Shown: positions 1 to 30,045 of the stretch, piece after piece
Position numbering within the stretch: the stretch's first letter is position 1
Layout of the letters: every line of letters starts with the position of its first letter
Assembly: GCA_021107945.1 (NCBI GenBank)
Contig: JAIORV010000138.1
Location: 1 to 30,149 of the forward strand
DNA: 30,149 nucleotides
Source of the DNA: Vulcanimicrobiota bacterium
GTDB taxonomy: Bacteria; Vulcanimicrobiota; JAJTBE01
Direction of reading: 5' to 3'
Position numbers and translations under genes: made by a program
The notes under the pieces: model-generated
What the model was told of the DNA's origin: nothing
What the model saw: the letters and a program-made list of their open reading frames with translations, nothing else
Database searches by the model: none

Positions 1-68
1 CCCGTCTTTGAGAAAATCATAGAAGTAAAGCTCTTCTCTCGTGATCCGCTCAGAATGACATGCTCAAG
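1..68. repeat. Dispersed ~70-bp repeat W, copy 1 (possibly truncated by the window edge)
   Basis: Aligns to 12208-12276. A third partial core CTTGATCCGCTCAGAAAGACA lies at 75-95. Confidence 0.7.
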
Positions 69-220
69 TCTTTCTTGATCCGCTCAGAAAGACAAGAAGC
101 CCCGGGGGACTGAATAATTACGCCTGAATCTTTGACAAAAAGTAAATGCACCCAAATCATATCAGCGAATGCCTGAAAAATAATGCAATAAATTAACACT
201 GAACCCTCGATATAATAAGT

Positions 221-5819: not shown

Positions 5820-7322
5820 ATGCAAGGAGGTGTTATGTGGCTCTTTGTTATAGGTTTTGTCATTATTGTTATTCTCTGGGTTATTGGGACTTTGGTTTCC
5901 AGATATAAAAAATGTCCCTCTGACAAGATCCTTGTAATTTTTGGTAAAACAGGCAAGGATGAATCCGGAGCGACACAGTCATCAAAATGTATCCATGGAG
6001 GAGCGTCATTTGTATGGCCTGTTATACAGGATTATATGTACCTTGACCTTACGCCGATTGCAATTGATATCCCATTAAAATCGGCACTCTCTAAGCAGAA
6101 TATTCGAATCGATGTACCCTCGACATTTACCGTGGGTATCTCCACCGATGCGGGTATAATGACAAACGCCGCCGAGAGACTGCTGGGACTGAATCATGAC
6201 CGTATCAGGATACTGGCACAGGATATCATCTTCGGTCAGCTTCGTGTGGTCATTGCAACGATGGATATCGAGGAGATCAATGCCGACCGTGATAAATTCC
6301 TTGAAAACGTCATGTCAAACGTTGAAGCTGAATTAAAAAAGATCGGATTGAAGCTGATCAACGTTAATGTTACTGATATCACTGACGAGTCAGGATACAT
6401 CGATGCTCTCGGTAAGGAAGCGGCAGCCCATGCTGTCAATGAGGCAAAAAAGAGCGTCGCTGAGAAAAACCGTGATGGATCTATTGGTGCAGCCAATGCA
6501 AAAAGAGACGAACGCGTTAGTGTTTCAAAAGCAAACGCCATTGCAGTAACTGGAGAAAATGAGGCAAAGGTAGCGATTGCCGACTCCGATGCCCAGCGTC
6601 GTGAAAGAGTCGCTCAGGCGGAAAAACTGGCGTCAGCCGCCGAGAAAGTCCAGTCCGCTCAGGCACTGGAAGAAGCATACGCGGCGGAACAAAAGGCCGA
6701 GCTGGTTCGTGCCGAGAAAGATAGGGCGACAAGAGTTGCCGACGAAGTTGTTCCTGCCGAGATTGAGAAGCAGAAAGTGGAAATCGCCGCTGAAGCCGAG
6801 GCAGAAAAAAGAAGAAGAGAAGCCAAGGGTGAAGCGGATGCCATTTACTTCAAACTTGCCGCACAAGCTAAAGGAAGCCTGGAGATTCTCAGCAAGCAGG
6901 CGGAAGGTCTTGGAAAGATTGTACTTGCCGCCGGCGCAGATCCAAAAATGGCGGCAATGCTCATGATTGTTGACAAACTGCCTCAACTCGTGAAGACGCA
7001 GGTTGAAGCTATCAAGGGTATAAAAATTGATAAGGTTGTCGTTTGGGATTCCATGGGAAGTGACGGCACGCCCGCAACTGCAAATTTTCTATCGGGAATG
7101 GCAAAATCGATTCCACCATTGAATGATCTCTTCAAGATAGCAGGAATGGAATTGCCCGATTACCTGGGAAAGAAAATCGAAGAGACAAAAGAACAAGCGA
7201 AGCCCGTAAAAACAGAAGTTTCGACGAGAACGGTAACTTCTTCCCAATCTCCCGTTGTAAAAACCGAGAGACGGATTGAATCACCAAGAAAAACGAAAGA
7301 TATGAGAGGAAGACAACCTTAA
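5820..7322 (+). CDS. Flotillin-like SPFH/band-7 protein (YqiK-like)
   Basis: N-terminal TM, SPFH domain and a long Ala/Glu/Lys-rich coiled coil (EAEKRRREAKGEA...). The ORF-track start 5802 includes the AAGGAGG RBS. Start chosen at ATG 5820, or possibly 5835. Confidence 0.8.
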   Translation: MQGGVMWLFVIGFVIIVILWVIGTLVSRYKKCPSDKILVIFGKTGKDESGATQSSKCIHGGASFVWPVIQDYMYLDLTPIAIDIPLKSALSKQNIRIDVPSTFTVGISTDAGIMTNAAERLLGLNHDRIRILAQDIIFGQLRVVIATMDIEEINADRDKFLENVMSNVEAELKKIGLKLINVNVTDITDESGYIDALGKEAAAHAVNEAKKSVAEKNRDGSIGAANAKRDERVSVSKANAIAVTGENEAKVAIADSDAQRRERVAQAEKLASAAEKVQSAQALEEAYAAEQKAELVRAEKDRATRVADEVVPAEIEKQKVEIAAEAEAEKRRREAKGEADAIYFKLAAQAKGSLEILSKQAEGLGKIVLAAGADPKMAAMLMIVDKLPQLVKTQVEAIKGIKIDKVVVWDSMGSDGTPATANFLSGMAKSIPPLNDLFKIAGMELPDYLGKKIEETKEQAKPVKTEVSTRTVTSSQSPVVKTERRIESPRKTKDMRGRQP

Positions 7323-7372
7323 ATAAGGTACTTAAATAAAGTAAAAGATATTTAATATCTGATACAATGCAC

Positions 7373-7405
7373 AAGGAGCGAATTGAAATTCGCTCCTTGT
7401 TTTAT
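7373..7405 (+). terminator. Intrinsic terminator of the flotillin operon (hairpin copy T1)
   Basis: Perfect hairpin AAGGAGCGAAT-TGAA-ATTCGCTCCTT followed by GTTTTAT. Confidence 0.75.
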
Positions 7406-7490
7406 CTTGTTTTATCTTGTTTTATCTTGTTTTATCTTGTTTTATCTTATCTTGTTTTATCTTATCTTGTTTTATCTTATCTTGTTTTAT
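7396..7490. repeat. Tandem repeat: (CTTGTTTTAT)x5 then (CTTAT+CTTGTTTTAT)x3
   Basis: Direct reading of the sequence. The 10-bp units start at 7396, 7406, 7416, 7426 and 7436. The 15-bp units run from 7446 to 7490. Confidence 0.95.
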
Positions 7491-7658
7491 AGTATATAGT
7501 AATGCATTAATAGGGACAGACACCATTTTATTAATATATTATTTAGGGACAGGGATAAATTCCGGGCAATATTTCCTGAAAACAGCTTAAGCTGTATATA
7601 ATTAATGAAGTCTATTTTTCTCTGCGGCGAGACGCTGCAGACACCTGCATTGTTATAA

Positions 7659-7695
7659 TGGTGGGGGCGGGGGCGGGGGCGGCGTCCCGCCACCC
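7659..7695. other. G-rich tract GGTGGGGGCGGGGGCGGGGGCGG...CCCGCCACCC (G-quadruplex or hairpin candidate)
   Basis: Four G runs of five or more G, and partial complementarity at the ends. Lies 3' of hicB on the minus strand. Confidence 0.4.
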
Positions 7696-7733
7696 AAATA
7701 ACAAGACCTTATTTTCGAGAAATAGCTTGCAAA

Positions 7734-8174
7734 TCAGGAAAATCCAATCTCCAGCTTCTTCCCAAAAGCCCTTGCCAACTTAAATAATGTTCTCAGAGTA
7801 ATATTCGACTTCTTTGCCCGTTCGATTTTTTGATAAGTCTGCCAGGGGATTCTTAGTTTTTCAGCCACCTGTTTCTGGGTCAATCCCGCTTCTTTTCTCA
7901 TATTCTTAAGAACCAGGGGGATCTCGATTTCCGGGTAAGGCGTGATATGAAGAATATCTTCTCCTTCCACTTTGGATGGCAAGGGGACTTCCTCATTGTC
8001 CTCAATCATTGATTCAATTACCATTGATAGAACATCCTGTCCCATTTCCACCAACTCCTCCAGGGATTCTCCCTGGGTAATTGCATCGGGAAAATCGATA
8101 AACTGAAGTGAGTATGCTGTCATATTATCATGATCTTCGAGGATTTCTTTCTCGAATTTTGCAGGATATTTCAT
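7734..8174 (-). CDS. hicB: HicB antitoxin with C-terminal HTH (XRE-like) domain
   Basis: 146 aa. N-terminal HicB fold and C-terminal HTH (LTQKQVAEKLRIPWQTYQKIERAK). Start lies 1 nt after the hicA stop (TAGAATG). Confidence 0.75.
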   Translation of the reverse strand: MKYPAKFEKEILEDHDNMTAYSLQFIDFPDAITQGESLEELVEMGQDVLSMVIESMIEDNEEVPLPSKVEGEDILHITPYPEIEIPLVLKNMRKEAGLTQKQVAEKLRIPWQTYQKIERAKKSNITLRTLFKLARAFGKKLEIGFS

Positions 8175-8175
8175 T

Positions 8176-8412
8176 CTATTTTCCCTCCTTCAGTTTTTCT
8201 TCGACTTCATACATTGCCTTTATTACAGACATTTCTGTTTTCATTGTTATATACCCATGCTCTCTGGGGACAGAGAGTTTGCATTTATATAGATAGTGAA
8301 TGAACTGAGAATGTCCACCCTTTTTAGAGGTTATTTTCCTTTTCCATCCTTGCTTTTTCAATGCTCTGATAATTTCTTTTGAGTTCTTGAACCTTTTACT
8401 CATATCAGCCAC
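8176..8412 (-). CDS. hicA: HicA-like (YcfA family) mRNA interferase toxin
   Basis: 78 aa basic protein. K-Q-G-W...GGHSQF...VP pattern typical of HicA. Tightly coupled to hicB downstream. Confidence 0.65.
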   Translation of the reverse strand: MADMSKRFKNSKEIIRALKKQGWKRKITSKKGGHSQFIHYLYKCKLSVPREHGYITMKTEMSVIKAMYEVEEKLKEGK

Positions 8413-8423
8413 TAACTTTCATA

Positions 8424-8455
8424 CATTATTATACACTATTTATAGTGCATCATCA
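8424..8455 (-). promoter_or_regulatory. hicA promoter with palindromic operator candidate
   Basis: The minus strand reads TATAAT here. It overlaps the palindrome CACTAT-TT-ATAGTG (~8438-8451). Probable HicB autoregulation site. Confidence 0.35.
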
Positions 8456-8540
8456 AGTAAAAAACCATTTTCATCCGGCGTCCCAACCGGAAAAAATGTG
8501 AAGAGTAGTTTTAATAGCGAATTGGTATAATTTAATGAAC

Positions 8541-8566
8541 AAGGAGCGAGTTTCAATTCGCTCCTT
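8541..8566. terminator. Hairpin copy T2 (inverted copy of T1). Likely terminator of ackA and boundary of the hicAB segment
   Basis: AAGGAGCGAGTTTCAATTCGCTCCTT matches the reverse complement of T1 at 25 of 26 positions. Confidence 0.6.
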
Positions 8567-8624: not shown

Positions 8625-9848
8625 TTAGCTTGGGACCTTTTTCAAATTTCCGATAACCTCTTTTGTCTCCCTGGCAATCATAAGTTCCTCATCCGTGGGT
8701 ATGATCCATACACGGACTCTTGAATCATCCGCGGATATTAATCTCTCCGACCCGGGCTTGTCGTTTTTATCGGGATCAAGCTTTATTCCAAGGAATTCAA
8801 GTCCCTTGCAGGATTTTTCTCTGACCAGCGGATCGTTTTCTCCCAATCCTGCGGTGAAAACAAGATCCGTAAGTCCTTCCATCGCCGCGGCGTATGCTCC
8901 GATATATTTTTTTATACGGTAGCAATATACATCTATGGCAAGCTTGGCTCTCTCATTTCCCTTGTCAGCCGCCGCTTCGACATCCCTTATGTCGTTTGAT
9001 ATTCCTGACAACCCGAGAAGACCGCTTTTCTTGTTAAGCACTTTGTCAACTTCATCAACGCTCAGTCCTGTCTGCCTCATTATGAAAAGAATTATCGCAG
9101 GATCAAAATCACCGGAGCGAGTACCCATAACAACTCCTTCAAGAGGAGTCATTCCCATTGAGGTATCAACGGAAATACCGTCTTTTATGGCGGCAAGACT
9201 GGCACCGTTACCCAGATGGCAGGTAATCATCCTGATTCCTTCAGGCTTTTGATTTAAAAGCTCATAGACTCTCAGGGAAACGAATTTATGTGAAGTTCCG
9301 TGAAATCCGTATCTTCTTATGCGCATTTTTTCATAATATTCATATGGCAGCGCATAGAGAAAAGCTTTTTCATCAAGTGTCTGGTGAAATGCCGTATCGA
9401 AAACACCAACATTGGGCACATCGCCGATAATTGCTTTCGCTGCGTAAATTCCAGCAAGATTCGCAGGATTATGAAGAGGAGCAAGGGGGATACATTCTTT
9501 CAATATTTCTATGACTTCGTTGTCAATAAGAACAGTGTGCGCGAATTTCTCGGCTCCATGAACAACCCTGTGACCCACTCCTTTTATCTCGGAAATATTT
9601 TTAATAAGCCCGTATTCATCACTCATAAGCTCATCAATTACCAGCTTGAATGCGGCCTTGTGATCTTCTGCTTTTACTTCCATTTCTTTTACTTTATCGT
9701 TCCAGGAAATTTTAAATATCTGACTTTTCCCGCCGATTCTCTCAACAAGACCTTTTGCCAGAAGTTTCAAATCATTATAACGAAAAAGTCTGAACTTCAG
9801 AGATGAACTCCCGGTGTTGATCACGAGAATCTTCATTCCTTCTGCCAC
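8625..9848 (-). CDS. ackA: Acetate kinase
   Basis: 407 aa. INTGSSSLKF N-terminal motif, HLGNG, and GTSHKF, all characteristic of the acetate kinase family. Confidence 0.9.
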   Translation of the reverse strand: MAEGMKILVINTGSSSLKFRLFRYNDLKLLAKGLVERIGGKSQIFKISWNDKVKEMEVKAEDHKAAFKLVIDELMSDEYGLIKNISEIKGVGHRVVHGAEKFAHTVLIDNEVIEILKECIPLAPLHNPANLAGIYAAKAIIGDVPNVGVFDTAFHQTLDEKAFLYALPYEYYEKMRIRRYGFHGTSHKFVSLRVYELLNQKPEGIRMITCHLGNGASLAAIKDGISVDTSMGMTPLEGVVMGTRSGDFDPAIILFIMRQTGLSVDEVDKVLNKKSGLLGLSGISNDIRDVEAAADKGNERAKLAIDVYCYRIKKYIGAYAAAMEGLTDLVFTAGLGENDPLVREKSCKGLEFLGIKLDPDKNDKPGSERLISADDSRVRVWIIPTDEELMIARETKEVIGNLKKVPS

Positions 9849-10649: not shown

Positions 10650-11720
10650 TTATTTATTCAACTTCACAACCGAACCAACCTCTAATAAATCCTTTCCAAC
10701 TTCTTTATAATTCTTTTTAAATTCATCGGATCCCACAACAATATTCCCGATATTTTCGCCGTTCAATTTACCGGTATATATTGTTCTATTTACGATCAAG
10801 AGGCCCGAGAGGAATATCCTGTCAGGATCCTGAGGCATGGGGAGGTTTCTGAAATTGCTGAAAACAGATAGCTTTTTAGGGTATTTGATTATTACAAATT
10901 GTGACGGTGAGTTTAATCTTCTCACATTATGCGAAATCTCCATGAAATAATAATACTTATCAGACTCTTTACCTTCCACTTCTATGAAGCTCTTTTTATA
11001 GACAGCGAGCAGCTCCTCGTAAAATCCCGTCAATCCTTTTACGCTCCATCTCGCCATTTCGCCGTCCGACAGGTTGTCGGGCATTCTATCCCGGGGTGTT
11101 ATATATATCGATGAAAAAGGAATTGAGGCGTCAAATACAGCCTGGGGCGAAATCATGGTCTTTCCCTTCCGAACCCTCGCCACGGGAATTTTTAAGGGCG
11201 GAAATGGATTTTTTATCGAGAATTTCTCATCTTTCGGGGCGATATATCCCTTTTTAACATATAGATTCTCCCTGTTCAGGAGATACACATATATCTTCCT
11301 TACGCTTCTCATCTTATAGAGAAGAAACGGGGAAATCACCCGCTCCGCAGTTAACTTTGGATCCAGGGATGAGGGATATTTGAAAAACTTCATGAAAAAC
11401 TTGTAATCCTGCGGATTCTTCTTTGTGGGAAGTGGGAACCCAAGATCCAGTATGTTTTTCAATTGAATATTAGTTATATCTGGTTTACAGGATTTTGAAA
11501 AAGACGGTGAATCAGGGCGATCATACTTCACCCTGTCCCCTTTAAAGAATTGAGCCTGGGGCATATATGCATAGTGAAACTTTACTGCATCATCAATTTC
11601 CCAGTTATCAATCCCTGTATTTACCGCAAAGCATTTTTCCCGCGATGTCGCCGCCTGCCATGCTATCACCATACAGGCGATTGAAATTATCAAAAGGGGC
11701 AAAAAATAGTTCTTCTTCAT
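10650..11720 (-). CDS. Hypothetical secreted/periplasmic protein
   Basis: 356 aa with an N-terminal signal peptide (MKKNYFLPLLIISIACMVIAWQA). No recognisable domain. Confidence 0.5.
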   Translation of the reverse strand: MKKNYFLPLLIISIACMVIAWQAATSREKCFAVNTGIDNWEIDDAVKFHYAYMPQAQFFKGDRVKYDRPDSPSFSKSCKPDITNIQLKNILDLGFPLPTKKNPQDYKFFMKFFKYPSSLDPKLTAERVISPFLLYKMRSVRKIYVYLLNRENLYVKKGYIAPKDEKFSIKNPFPPLKIPVARVRKGKTMISPQAVFDASIPFSSIYITPRDRMPDNLSDGEMARWSVKGLTGFYEELLAVYKKSFIEVEGKESDKYYYFMEISHNVRRLNSPSQFVIIKYPKKLSVFSNFRNLPMPQDPDRIFLSGLLIVNRTIYTGKLNGENIGNIVVGSDEFKKNYKEVGKDLLEVGSVVKLNK

Positions 11721-11959
11721 TAATTCGTCACCTTTCTCGTGTTGTACTTCGATTATTATTCAGATCCCCTGACATGTCATGTTATGTAAAAGTCAATACT
11801 TTCCAATAACTTATTAGCTTTGTCTGTCTGCCGGTCTGTGGCGTCGATCCGGTGTTGGATTAGGACAACACCCGATTTTAATCGGGTGGGAGGATGATGC
11901 CCCAAACATTGGGTGTTTAACCGTTTTAACGGTTTCCCATTATTTGTCTGCTCCTGTCC

Positions 11960-12050
11960 TGGAAACCACTAAAGTGGTTAAGTCAAGCGAAAAGGGGTGG
12001 TTATGCCCTTCCTTCCACCATAATAAATTATGGTGTTGTCTTAACTTCCG
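11960..12050 (+). ncRNA. Two-hairpin conserved RNA motif, copy A
   Basis: CTGGAA-[AACCAC-TAAA-GTGGTT]-...TGGTTATGCC-pyrimidine tract-[CACCATAA-TAAA-TTATGGTG]-TTGTCTTAA. Homologous to copy B at 19470-19555, with compensatory changes. Confidence 0.5.
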
Positions 12051-12207: not shown

Positions 12208-12276
12208 CCCATCTTTGAGAAAGTAATCTGAGTAAAGGATGTTTTTCGTGATCCGCTCAGTATGACAATCTCAGGG
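12208..12276. repeat. Dispersed ~70-bp repeat W, copy 2
   Basis: About 75% identical to window positions 1-68. Shared core TCTTTGAGAAA...GTGATCCGCTCAGNATGACA. Confidence 0.7.
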
Positions 12277-12299
12277 CTGTCTTTAATAAGGAATCAAAT

Positions 12300-13592: not shown

Positions 13593-13866
13593 CTGTCATC
13601 CTCCTTTCATGGTTTGATGGGATTATCTGGATAAATTATTAATAATTACAAAAGGACGTAATTCAGGACAAGTTATTATTATGGTAGAGTGATTTGTGTG
13701 GTATTCCGGACGGTATCTCACATGTTTATTTTACTACAAAAATGTTACACTAAGGTTTCATAAAGGTTACAGGGGGGGAAAGATTTGGTAATAATTTTTA
13801 CCGGGATATGAATAAATATTTGATAGATTTTTACAAAGGAGTTATAATAAAATCGGAGGTGAGAAT

Positions 13867-14073
13867 ATGCGACAAGTTATATTGTATCCGGGAGAAGATA
13901 ATTTCTGGGTAGTTGAATGTCCAAGCCTTCCCGGGTGTATAAGCCAGGGAAGAACAAGAGAAGAGTCGCTGGAAAATATAAAAGAAGCGATAATGGGTTA
14001 TATCCACGCGTTGGAGGAAGACGGGCTTCCGGTTCCTGTGGAGCATTTCAATGTAATGGTGGTAGTGGTATGA
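13867..14073 (+). CDS. hicB: HicB-family antitoxin (short, no DNA-binding domain)
   Basis: 68 aa. Reads YPGEDNFWVVECPSLPGCISQGRTREESLENIKEAI, the UPF0150/HicB signature. GGAGGTG RBS. Stop overlaps the hicA start (ATGA). Confidence 0.75.
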   Translation: MRQVILYPGEDNFWVVECPSLPGCISQGRTREESLENIKEAIMGYIHALEEDGLPVPVEHFNVMVVVV

Positions 14074-14297
14074 CAAAGCTTCCGGCTATTTCGGGTAAAA
14101 AATGCATGAAGGCACTAATGTTGAATGGTTTTTATATAAAACGTCGGGAAGGAAGCCATATTATATTAAAAAGAGATATACCTTTCTCTCAATTGGTGGT
14201 ACCTGATCATAAAGAGCTTGACAGAGGGACTCTTCGCGCAATAATAAGGCAATCCGGCCTTTCGGTACCGGAATTCATAAATCTTCTACAGAAATAA
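14070..14297 (+). CDS. hicA: HicA-family toxin
   Basis: 75 aa from the internal Met of ORF 13917..14297. Reads GKK..KAL..NGF...R.GSH.IL.....VP.H.EL..GTLR.I.RQSGLS, the HicA pattern. The upstream part of the ORF overlaps hicB out of frame. Confidence 0.7.
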   Translation: MTKLPAISGKKCMKALMLNGFYIKRREGSHIILKRDIPFSQLVVPDHKELDRGTLRAIIRQSGLSVPEFINLLQK

Positions 14298-15498: not shown

Positions 15499-15595
15499 GA
15501 GTAAATTTGCAAACAAATTGGCACGCAAATTAACAAACCTAAAGGTTTGAGCTACGAGGTTTGGGTTATGAACGTAGCGCGGGTTTTTAAACCCG
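15499..15595 (+). repeat. Mosaic REP module M1: 12-bp repeats, CCTAAAGGTTTGAGCTACGAGGTTTGGG, then REP
   Basis: Shares the layout of modules at 17365-17520 and 18117-18219. The REP copy (GTAG plus GCGGGTTTTTAAACCCGC) is at 15573-15595. Confidence 0.8.
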
Positions 15596-15807
15596 CCCGG
15601 TGGATGTCAGATTGAAATCGGGTGTTGTCTAAAAAATGTCATGAAAGATTAAGAATTAATAGGGGAAGAAGGAAATATATTTATTTTCAGGAAAAAAATG
15701 CCCTTTACGCAAAAGTTGTAGCTATTTGACGATATATAAAGGTTTTTTCTTGCTAAAATCAAAACTTTCAAGTAATTCTCAAAAAAAATTAAGGAGGATA
15801 ATTCGAT

Positions 15808-17613: not shown

Positions 17614-18111
17614 ATGGAACAACAATCTAAAAAATTACATTTCAAAGCGAAGAGATTGAAGGGATTTGAATACCACGGATTTTATCGCTATTTCCTGACA
17701 TTGTGCGTAGAAAAAAAACACCCCCTTTTCAAATCACAAAAACTAGTGGAGTTCATCCGCAGAAGTTTTTTCAAGACGGCTGAAGAATGGAAACCTGACA
17801 TAATCTGCTTTTGCTTTATGCCCGATCATCTTCATTTACTCGTCGGCGGGCTCGACGAATCCTCGGTTCTGAAGGGATTTATCAAAAATTTCAAACAAAA
17901 AACCGGTTACGCCTTCAAGCAAAAGACCGGGCGAAAATTATGGCAAAGGAGTTTCTATGACCATATTCTCCGGGATGAGGAGGAGACATACGTTATAGGC
18001 AAATATATTCTTGAGAACCCGGTGAGAAAAGGGATTGTGGAAGATTATCGGGATTATCCATTTTCATGGTGTAAATATTTTGAGTTGAAAGATGGGGATT
18101 CGGTTATTTGA
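17614..18111 (+). CDS. REP-associated tyrosine transposase (RAYT, IS200-like Y1 HuH transposase)
   Basis: 165 aa. HuH motif MPDHLHLLV. Catalytic Tyr motif YILENPVRKG (the YxxxNPV of TnpA_REP). Flanked on both sides by GTAG-palindrome REPs. AAGGGGGAT RBS. Confidence 0.85.
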   Translation: MEQQSKKLHFKAKRLKGFEYHGFYRYFLTLCVEKKHPLFKSQKLVEFIRRSFFKTAEEWKPDIICFCFMPDHLHLLVGGLDESSVLKGFIKNFKQKTGYAFKQKTGRKLWQRSFYDHILRDEEETYVIGKYILENPVRKGIVEDYRDYPFSWCKYFELKDGDSVI

Positions 18112-19469: not shown

Positions 19470-19555
19470 GGCTGGAAGCCTCTAAAGAGGCTAAGACGGC
19501 GTGGTTAAGCCATTCTCCCTCCCACCACAATAAATTGTGGTGTTGTCTTAAAAGT
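19470..19555 (+). ncRNA. Two-hairpin conserved RNA motif, copy B (3' of the radical SAM gene)
   Basis: CTGGAA-[AGCCTC-TAAA-GAGGCT]-...TGGTTAAGCC-pyrimidine tract-[CACCACAA-TAAA-TTGTGGTG]-TTGTCTTAA. Stems covary with copy A. Confidence 0.5.
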
Positions 19556-29396: not shown

Positions 29397-29594
29397 CTAA
29401 GCACTTTCATAAATCACTTGCCCTGTTCTCAGGACTTCGCTTATGAAGCTAGCGGGTTCACGTTCCTCGTATTCGCTGAGGTAAAACAGAGTGGGAGTGA
29501 TATAAAAATCAATGGGGCGGCGCAATTTTCTAAGCAGAATTTCATCATCAAGGGAGTTAGCCCCGGGCTCTTTTTTGACAATCAATGCAACCAT
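29397..29594 (-). CDS. Hypothetical small protein (possibly a nucleotidyltransferase-like fragment)
   Basis: 65 aa ORF with weak resemblance to C-terminal regions of minimal nucleotidyltransferases. No catalytic motif. Confidence 0.2.
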   Translation of the reverse strand: MVALIVKKEPGANSLDDEILLRKLRRPIDFYITPTLFYLSEYEEREPASFISEVLRTGQVIYESA

Positions 29595-30045
29595 CTATGT
29601 CACTGTATTAATTCGCTTCCCCCCTGACTTGGGAGCCGAATAACAGTGCCATTCTTAAATCGAACTTCTGCCTGACAACCTCGATATATTGCTCTACCTT
29701 TCTTTTAACTTCTTCATCAACCATTCGAAAAGCTCCTCGGTTGAAGTTTGCCAATTTTGAGCATACCCCTTGCGGTATCGAGGTCGTATTCCGCCGACTC
29801 GATCCATGACCTTATTGTTCTTTCATTTTCTATTTGCCAATACTATTCCCCTCCACATGATATTTTATCATAAAAATGCATTGAATGAAATATGCACTTC
29901 ACAATTCTGGGCGAAATGAATGAAATAGAATGAAGTCGAGAATCCAAGACAATCTTGGCGGCAACGCATTTTTTATGATGAATCGTGTGGAAGTCTTACA
30001 TATTGAAGAAATTCTCCAAGCATTTATTGATTTTGCAGGAATGTC

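Follow-up and report, generated by a model that had tools for sequence, protein, structure and literature searches.

In a 30,149-nt stretch of DNA (the window), which is an entire contig of an NCBI metagenome-assembled genome (MAG) labelled Candidatus Eremiobacteraeota, convergent genes for a flotillin (+ strand) and acetate kinase (ackA, − strand) enclose a hicAB toxin-antitoxin (TA) operon that is bracketed by two near-identical hairpins in inverted orientation. We lean, though not strongly, toward reading these hairpins as duplicated terminators of flotillin and ackA, which would insulate hicAB within a variable hotspot. This reading draws on the identity, position and folding of the two hairpins, on the lack of other copies and on the rapid turnover of sequence beyond both genes in related genomes.

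Two near-identical hairpins bracket hicAB

The 26-nt core of hairpin 1 (AAGGAGCGAATTGAAATTCGCTCCTT) was found at 7373-7398 on the + strand with no mismatches and again at 8541-8566 on the − strand with one mismatch (hairpin 2), against a mean of 0.00 matches in 100 dinucleotide-preserving shuffles of the window. A repeat search extended the inverted arms to 29 nt (7373-7401 and 8538-8566; 97% complementary, 1136 nt between them). The initial annotation, which had described near-identical inverted hairpins around hicAB, was thus borne out (1 mismatch in 29 nt, with 0 expected from shuffles), as was its list of the enclosed features: hicA, hicB, a tandem repeat (7396-7490) and a G-rich tract (7660-7695). 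Its start for hairpin 1 needs a small correction, as 7373 is the start of the 26-nt core and the 29-letter string actually begins at 7371. A direct alignment of the hairpins is also possible, the unit itself being palindromic (23/26, with a common 5′ flank AATGNAC), but the inverted alignment is better (25/26). Since the loop is identical and a GTT flank is common to both in the inverted alignment, the hairpins are, as judged from sequence, true paralogous copies and not convergent look-alikes.

Hairpin 1 starts 48 nt 3′ of the flotillin stop, on the flotillin strand. Its 13-bp stem (ACAAGGAGCGAAT / ATTCGCTCCTTGT, counting the ACAAGG...CCTTGT extension) closes a TGAA loop and is directly followed by TTTTATCTTGTTTTAT, giving a canonical U-tract (U-rich tract 3′ of the stem, UUUUAUCUUGUUUUAU). 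The predicted RNA fold on the + strand (−20.4 kcal/mol, z = −6.4 versus shuffles) accompanies a rank as the top terminator-like site of the whole window; Rfam gave no match at gathering scores, with sub-threshold terminator-like matches at hairpin 1 only. Hairpin 2, which reads AAGGAGCGAATTGAAACTCGCTCCTTGTT in the ackA sense (− strand), sits 58 nt 3′ of the ackA stop on the ackA strand, so that the orientation of each hairpin relative to its gene is equal. Its stem comprises 9 bp plus an A.C mismatch on the − strand, or 11 bp with a G.U pair on the + strand, and folds at −14.6 kcal/mol (−, z = −4.0) or −15.7 kcal/mol (+). None of the shuffles folded as well as hairpin 1 (+) or hairpin 2 (−). 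The T-tract of hairpin 2 is weak in both directions (GUUCAUUAAAUUAUAC on the − strand). A 9-nt copy of the hairpin 5′ arm and loop (AGCGAATTG) was observed at 8518-8526, 15 nt inside hairpin 2, where its − strand form (CAATTCGCT) could pair with the hairpin 5′ arm; it may be the relic of a half-copy, or chance.

Contigs from other assemblies matched the window at 100% identity on either side: ENA contigs NODE_37 (L055) and NODE_131 (L001), and Logan contigs L056 and L002. All four terminate within the array. Between the two ENA contigs there is an overlap of 55 nt (7436-7490), and their recorded coverages are alike (8.9 and 8.6). The flotillin and hicAB sides are therefore truly adjacent, and the bracketing is not the artefact of a single assembly. 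The array breaks every short-read assembly and is of uncertain length between assemblies; in L055, where it lies at 11577-11682, repeat sequence continues for 11 nt past the point at which the window leaves it, so it may be longer than in the window. Its T-tracts are phased at ~10 nt and, by inference, could produce curved DNA.

The pair has no further copies

No third copy was found, with 5-6 mismatches allowed, in 34 kb of source sequence (the window plus 4.2 kb added by L055) or in ~80 kb from relatives. A scan for AAGGAGCGANTNNNNANTCGCTCCTT with the loop left free, in one genome per species (185,579 species), returned 41 loci with the common 9-bp stem: one site each, mostly in different genomes, from unrelated phyla and none from the source lineage. 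Loop and flanks match those of the window in none of the 41, and in most of them an A-tract precedes the stem and a T-tract follows it; by their sequence they look like convergent bidirectional terminators. As the same stem recurs at 41 unrelated loci, the 9-bp stem alone is no sign of relatedness. When JGI metagenomes, among them the sample of a relative described below (85% flotillin identity), were scanned with the loop specified, a single match appeared (L044), an unrelated terminator between convergent open reading frames. Viral contigs scanned for the hairpin pattern gave no match, nor did the cassette DNA when compared with plasmids and phages. Within the window, no comparable flanking palindromes occur at a second hicB/hicA pair or in a MNT/HEPN region (both described below), and further strong hairpin and T-tract terminators at other gene ends are each unique in sequence. 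Of the alternative offered initially, a conserved family of bidirectional terminators, the terminator-like character survives, but no family was seen (2 copies in 34 kb, none elsewhere).

Sequence beyond flotillin and ackA turns over rapidly in relatives

Flotillin homologues with 91% (L046), 85% (L045) and 79% (L047) amino-acid identity retain the upstream synteny (YceD, L32, FabH, FabD, FabG, ACP, CinA), and their similarity to the window is gone within ~8 nt of the flotillin stop. Flotillin is then followed by a GTAG-type repetitive extragenic palindromic (REP) hairpin in L046, by a unique hairpin in L047, and by a HEPN/MNT pair with an NsnB/HEC-03B-like ATPase in L045. At the other end, a relative with 89% ackA identity (L051) has the REP GAACGTAGCGCGGGTCTTTAGACCCGC directly 3′ of the stop and then unrelated genes. 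Homology with relatives ends at the stop codons (~7330 and ~8632), 40-65 nt outside the hairpins, which places the hairpins within the segment that varies rather than at its margins. In a sibling lineage (91% nucleotide identity), an HEC-01A-like ATPase follows elongation factor P (EF-P, efp) in place of ackA. Since relatives hold HEPN/MNT and defense ATPase genes here, the flotillin-efp interval behaves as a TA/defense hotspot.

Several details of these loci were recorded alongside. The defense loci of relatives lie at 9694-13450 in L045, 3596-5577 in L049 and 1841-3813 in L050; after efp, relatives carry the HEC-01A-like AAA ATPase together with a 214-aa protein. In the sibling lineage, ackA itself is out of synteny. 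At the position of the array, the 91% flotillin relative (L046) shows a short tandem repeat of another kind (CCTTGTAAA-like), and a 15-nt tandem repeat lies upstream of ackA in the sibling contig L052. Window positions 29422-29806 show 72-83% nucleotide similarity to the MNT/HEPN genes after the L045 flotillin, indicating a related MNT/HEPN pair near the right end of the window.

The sibling ackA was recovered on 1.47-kb contigs (L052, L053 and L054) from three samples. Past its stop lie 43 unrelated nt, then a 48-nt piece of hicB, after which similarity ends. This relic (L052 1403-1450, equivalent to window 8019-7972) is 92% identical and all four of its differences are synonymous, suggesting that the gene was intact until recently. 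The relic implies that hicAB already stood beside ackA in the common ancestor and was eroded in the sibling. Hairpin 2 is absent beside the relic, an arrangement close to the one that the initial annotation had itself named as telling against capture, namely relatives with hicAB at the same site and no hairpins. A resemblance of the 43-nt spacer to window 8494-8516 was considered and rejected, as 53 of 300 shuffles scored as well. The only close HicB elsewhere (L048, 81%) is encoded as a solitary gene on a 7.6-Mb contig, with no such hairpins around it. The empty site that capture between palindromes would predict, with flotillin and ackA adjacent and the two hairpins collapsed to one, was not found among the contigs of relatives, which lack any copy.

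Duplicated terminators as the favored explanation

We propose that both palindromes are paralogous copies of one ~30-nt GC-cored stem-loop and that each would serve as the Rho-independent terminator of one convergent housekeeping gene, flotillin (+) or ackA (−). Given their shared gene-relative orientation 48-58 nt past the stops, both mRNAs would end in ...AAGGAGCGAAUUGAAAYUCGCUCCUUGUU. The terminator reading follows from position, orientation, folds, the U-tract of hairpin 1 and the reuse of the stem in many phyla, and from the different hairpins that relatives carry at these two gene ends. Between the hairpins, hicAB appears self-contained, with a predicted promoter, an operator-like palindrome, translational coupling and a GC-rich 3′ structure of its own, and the location of such an autonomous module suggests that the hairpins act as transcriptional insulators on both sides; from their observed positions and folding we infer both actual termination and this insulating effect. 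The gap after flotillin and ackA would be a lineage-specific hotspot where TA and defense genes, and terminator hairpins with them, come in, give way to others and decay. That the two hairpins are nearly identical calls for a recent copying event: the second copy would have arisen by local duplication in this lineage. The hairpins do not travel with hicB, as the 81% hicB lacks them and the sibling relic lacks hairpin 2.

Several points weigh against this explanation. The ackA-sense U-tract of hairpin 2 is poor (GUUCAUUAAAUU), and the single mismatch in hairpin 2 weakens its stem on the ackA-sense strand. Independent terminators have no reason to be identical at 28 of 29 positions. Some pairing logic is suggested by the 1.1-kb distance between the two copies and the lack of any other in 34 kb. 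Finally, a parallel ParE/RelE operon with a duplicated 24-bp palindrome was read as carrying a recombination site (PMC13617665).

Alternative explanations

In the first alternative, a site-specific recombinase (Xer/dif-like or resolvase res-I-like) would act at the hairpins to insert, excise or flip hicAB. To our knowledge, the hairpins resemble no known dif consensus sequence. Hairpin 1 does parse as 11+6+11 (CAAGGAGCGAA TTGAAA TTCGCTCCTTG), the asymmetric centre TTGAAA is identical in both hairpins in inverted orientation, the locus is a TA/defense hotspot, and precedents exist in Photorhabdus (PMC13617665) and Acinetobacter (PMC6449649). However, the relatives examined lack the palindrome and offer no single-palindrome empty site, the homology breakpoints lie outside the hairpins, and a GC-rich stem that is fully symmetric and leads into a T-tract just past a gene is what a terminator looks like. 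The window holds no recombinase gene apart from one resembling a REP-associated tyrosine transposase (RAYT), whose REP family differs, while the cassette has no plasmid or phage match and the closest hicB elsewhere has no sites. Inverted sites moreover predict inversion, not excision, and only one orientation was seen at hairpin 2, in two samples. We therefore judge recombination sites of this kind unlikely, and a little less likely still the specific form in which a tyrosine, serine or HUH recombinase uses 11+6+11 sites with a TTGAAA centre to flip or shuttle hicAB. What stands of the proposed insertion or capture between palindromes is that the hairpins are true paralogues in a TA/defense hotspot; that they mark the boundaries of an inserted cassette is not borne out, there being no target-site duplication, breakpoints outside the hairpins, and no hairpins at the closest hicB elsewhere.

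We also consider it improbable, to about the same degree as flipping, that the hairpins belong to a dispersed REP-like family that was mobilized in trans by a Y1 (HUH) transposase and landed at two gene ends. A RAYT-like Y1_Tnp gene is present at 17614-18111, members of a genuine GTAG-REP family sit at these very gene ends in relatives, and the size and palindromic nature of the hairpins fit REPs of 30-40 nt (PMC3333891). Against this, their flanks (AATGCAC and AATGAAC) lack GTAG and share only the weak motif AATGNAC; two copies occur in 34 kb compared with six of the true REP, and none in ~80 kb of relatives or in JGI metagenomes. The stem of hairpin 1 is also perfect, whereas the E. coli TnpA-REP system requires a stem mismatch (PMC3333891).

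It is very improbable that hicAB is carried by a transposon (resembling a miniature inverted-repeat transposable element or an insertion sequence) with the hairpins as its terminal inverted repeats, or by an integron cassette with the hairpins as its attC-like ends. TA cassettes are common in chromosomal integrons, and 29-nt inverted repeats do bound a 1.2-kb segment with a TA pair. Nonetheless, there is no target-site duplication (flanks ...AATGCAC versus TATATAT...) and no GTTRRRY core (GTTTTAT and GTTCATT follow the stems), the window encodes no IntI, and its only transposase-like gene is the Y1 RAYT, which has a different REP of its own. The segment that varies among relatives extends past the repeats, and no other copy was found in the genome, metagenome or viral contigs scanned. 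Lastly, although the 9-bp stem arises independently in many phyla, chance or convergence of unrelated terminators, or an assembly artefact, is essentially refuted by zero matches in shuffles, by a loop and GTT flank that are identical here and different in all 41 unrelated instances, and by the recovery of both hairpins in independent assemblies from two samples.

Genes and anatomy of the hicAB cassette

The features of the locus are collected in Table 1. Flotillin likely starts at its first ATG (5820), preceded by the ribosome-binding site AAAGGAGGA; its 500-aa product is on record in independent contigs, as is a 403-aa AckA product in the databases. The TA operon shares the ackA strand and follows hairpin 2 on it, and its composition, a PF07927 HicA adjoining a PF15919 HicB with a DNA-binding domain, is that of a type II HicAB system. 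hicA starts at ATG 8403 or GTG 8412. Its stop is 1 nt from the hicB ATG, and the hicB ribosome-binding site (AAGGAGGG) lies within the hicA 3′ end. HicB, identical to MCD4784984.1, combines an N-terminal HicB-like domain with a C-terminal Xre-type helix-turn-helix (HTH_3) and belongs to a rare subfamily (5 database matches). Within the spacer of the hicAB promoter, the palindrome CACTAT-TT-ATAGTG (8434-8447) is a plausible operator for the HTH of HicB.

Table 1. Coordinates of features at the flotillin-hicAB-ackA locus of the window
Feature	Coordinates	Strand	Basis
Flotillin/SPFH (Band_7) gene	5820..7322	+	PF01145, E 8e-27
Hairpin 1, putative flotillin intrinsic terminator	7371..7400	+	Sequence, repeat search, RNA fold
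Tandem array (CTTGTTTTAT)n / (CTTGTTTTATCTTAT)n	7396..7490	none	TRF periods 10 and 15
GC-rich palindrome, 18-nt arms, holding (GGGGGC)3 at 7660-7682	7650..7704	−	Inverted-repeat search
hicB antitoxin	7734..8174	−	PF15919, E 4e-10; PF01381, E 1.1e-14
hicA toxin	8176..8412	−	PF07927, 28.4 bits versus cut-off 27 (just above)
hicAB sigma-70-like promoter, TTGATG-17 nt-TATAAT	8428..8456	−	Promoter scan, 10/12 matches
Hairpin 2	8538..8566	−	Sequence, repeat search, RNA fold
ackA, acetate kinase	8625..9836	−	PF00871, E 3e-158

The GC-rich palindrome around the G-rich tract lies 30 nt past the hicB stop and has no U-tract. It is possibly the 3′ stem-loop of the hicAB transcript, a role suggested by its location; its fold is no better than that of shuffles (z = −0.5 on −, −1.5 on +). 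The (GGGGGC)3 region has G-quadruplex potential on the + strand and would give a C-rich hairpin on the hicAB transcript.

Other elements in the window

The RAYT-like gene (PF01797, + strand) is flanked by a REP family of the form GAAC-GTAG-CGCGGGTTTTTAAACCCGC. Copies of this REP start at 15574, 17181, 17418, 17484 and 18197 (+) and 27391 (−) in the window, and at 186, 249 and 9206 of L051 and 2983 of L046 among relatives. They often lie within composite repeats of 63-110 nt (CAAACCTAAAGGTTTG AGCTACGAGGTTTG...), a layout that resembles a ‘REPtron’. The second TA pair (~13867-14297, +) encodes a HicB-like protein of 68 aa and a HicA of 75 aa, with the antitoxin gene first, and has a strong promoter-like site at 13820-13848. 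Two copies of a 37-nt hairpin (12008-12044 and 19515-19551) show a compensatory stem change (CACCATAAT..ATTATGGTG versus CACCACAAT..ATTGTGGTG). Both are followed by a box GGTGTTGTCT(T)AA, which recurs at 15621 (+) and 11864-11872 (−) beside two other hairpins. A repeat with GTGATCCGCTCAGAATGACA links window positions 1-95 and 12208-12283 (76% over 76 nt) and recurs in the 85% flotillin relative (L045 10523-10624), where it adjoins the HEPN/MNT pair; it may be another dispersed intergenic element.

Significance and comparison with known systems

If the hairpins are only terminators, the locus illustrates a TA module insulated between convergent housekeeping genes, at a site where terminators, REPs, TA and defense genes turn over fast; this would be useful context without being a surprise. 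As recombination sites, they would carry the range of palindrome-flanked TA modules beyond the Acinetobacter plasmids and Photorhabdus chromosomes known to date, into a distant uncultured phylum, with a single sequence acting as terminator and recombination site alike. Should flipping or shuttling be true, an uncultured Eremiobacterota lineage would harbor, on its chromosome, a TA cassette akin to a dif module or an inverton, with sites that double as terminators.

Among known systems, intrinsic and often bidirectional terminators between convergent genes resemble both hairpins in having a GC-rich stem-loop tens of nt past a stop. They differ in that here two near-identical copies bracket an operon, the U-tract of hairpin 2 is poor and termination is predicted. 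In Photorhabdus laumondii TT01, ParE/RelE 26 sits between two copies of a 24-bp palindrome that resembles Tn3 res-I, a relative without the TA has a single palindrome, and a homologous TA is carried on a Tn3-family transposon (PMC13617665). Our locus shares with it a type II TA operon between near-identical palindromes of 24-30 bp in a chromosomal intergenic gap, but no single-palindrome relative and no plasmid or phage match was found here.

In Acinetobacter, inverted 28-bp XerC/D sites of 11+6+11 bp lie on either side of dif modules, one of which is a TA module of 768 bp (PMC6449649). Like hicAB with its hairpins, dif/pdif modules are ~1 kb long, may hold TA pairs and have inverted sites of ~28 bp, to which the 11+6+11 parse of hairpin 1 corresponds. 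In contrast to pdif sites, which have distinct XerC/XerD arms and many copies on plasmids, the sites here have GC-rich arms with full symmetry, number only two, lie on a chromosome and show no sign of movement. The hicAB module was not seen in other contexts, nor an empty site, in the genomes, metagenomes, plasmids and phages searched. Like REP elements and bacterial interspersed mosaic elements, which come with RAYTs, the hairpins are short extragenic palindromes located where genes end. They differ in lacking GTAG, in the perfect stem of hairpin 1 and in showing no sign of dispersal; E. coli TnpA-REP depends on a mismatch in the stem and neither bound nor cleaved a perfect palindrome (PMC3333891). 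The operon between them resembles known type II HicAB systems, with hicA upstream of hicB, translational coupling and a promoter with a palindrome, and its proteins are ordinary members of that group.

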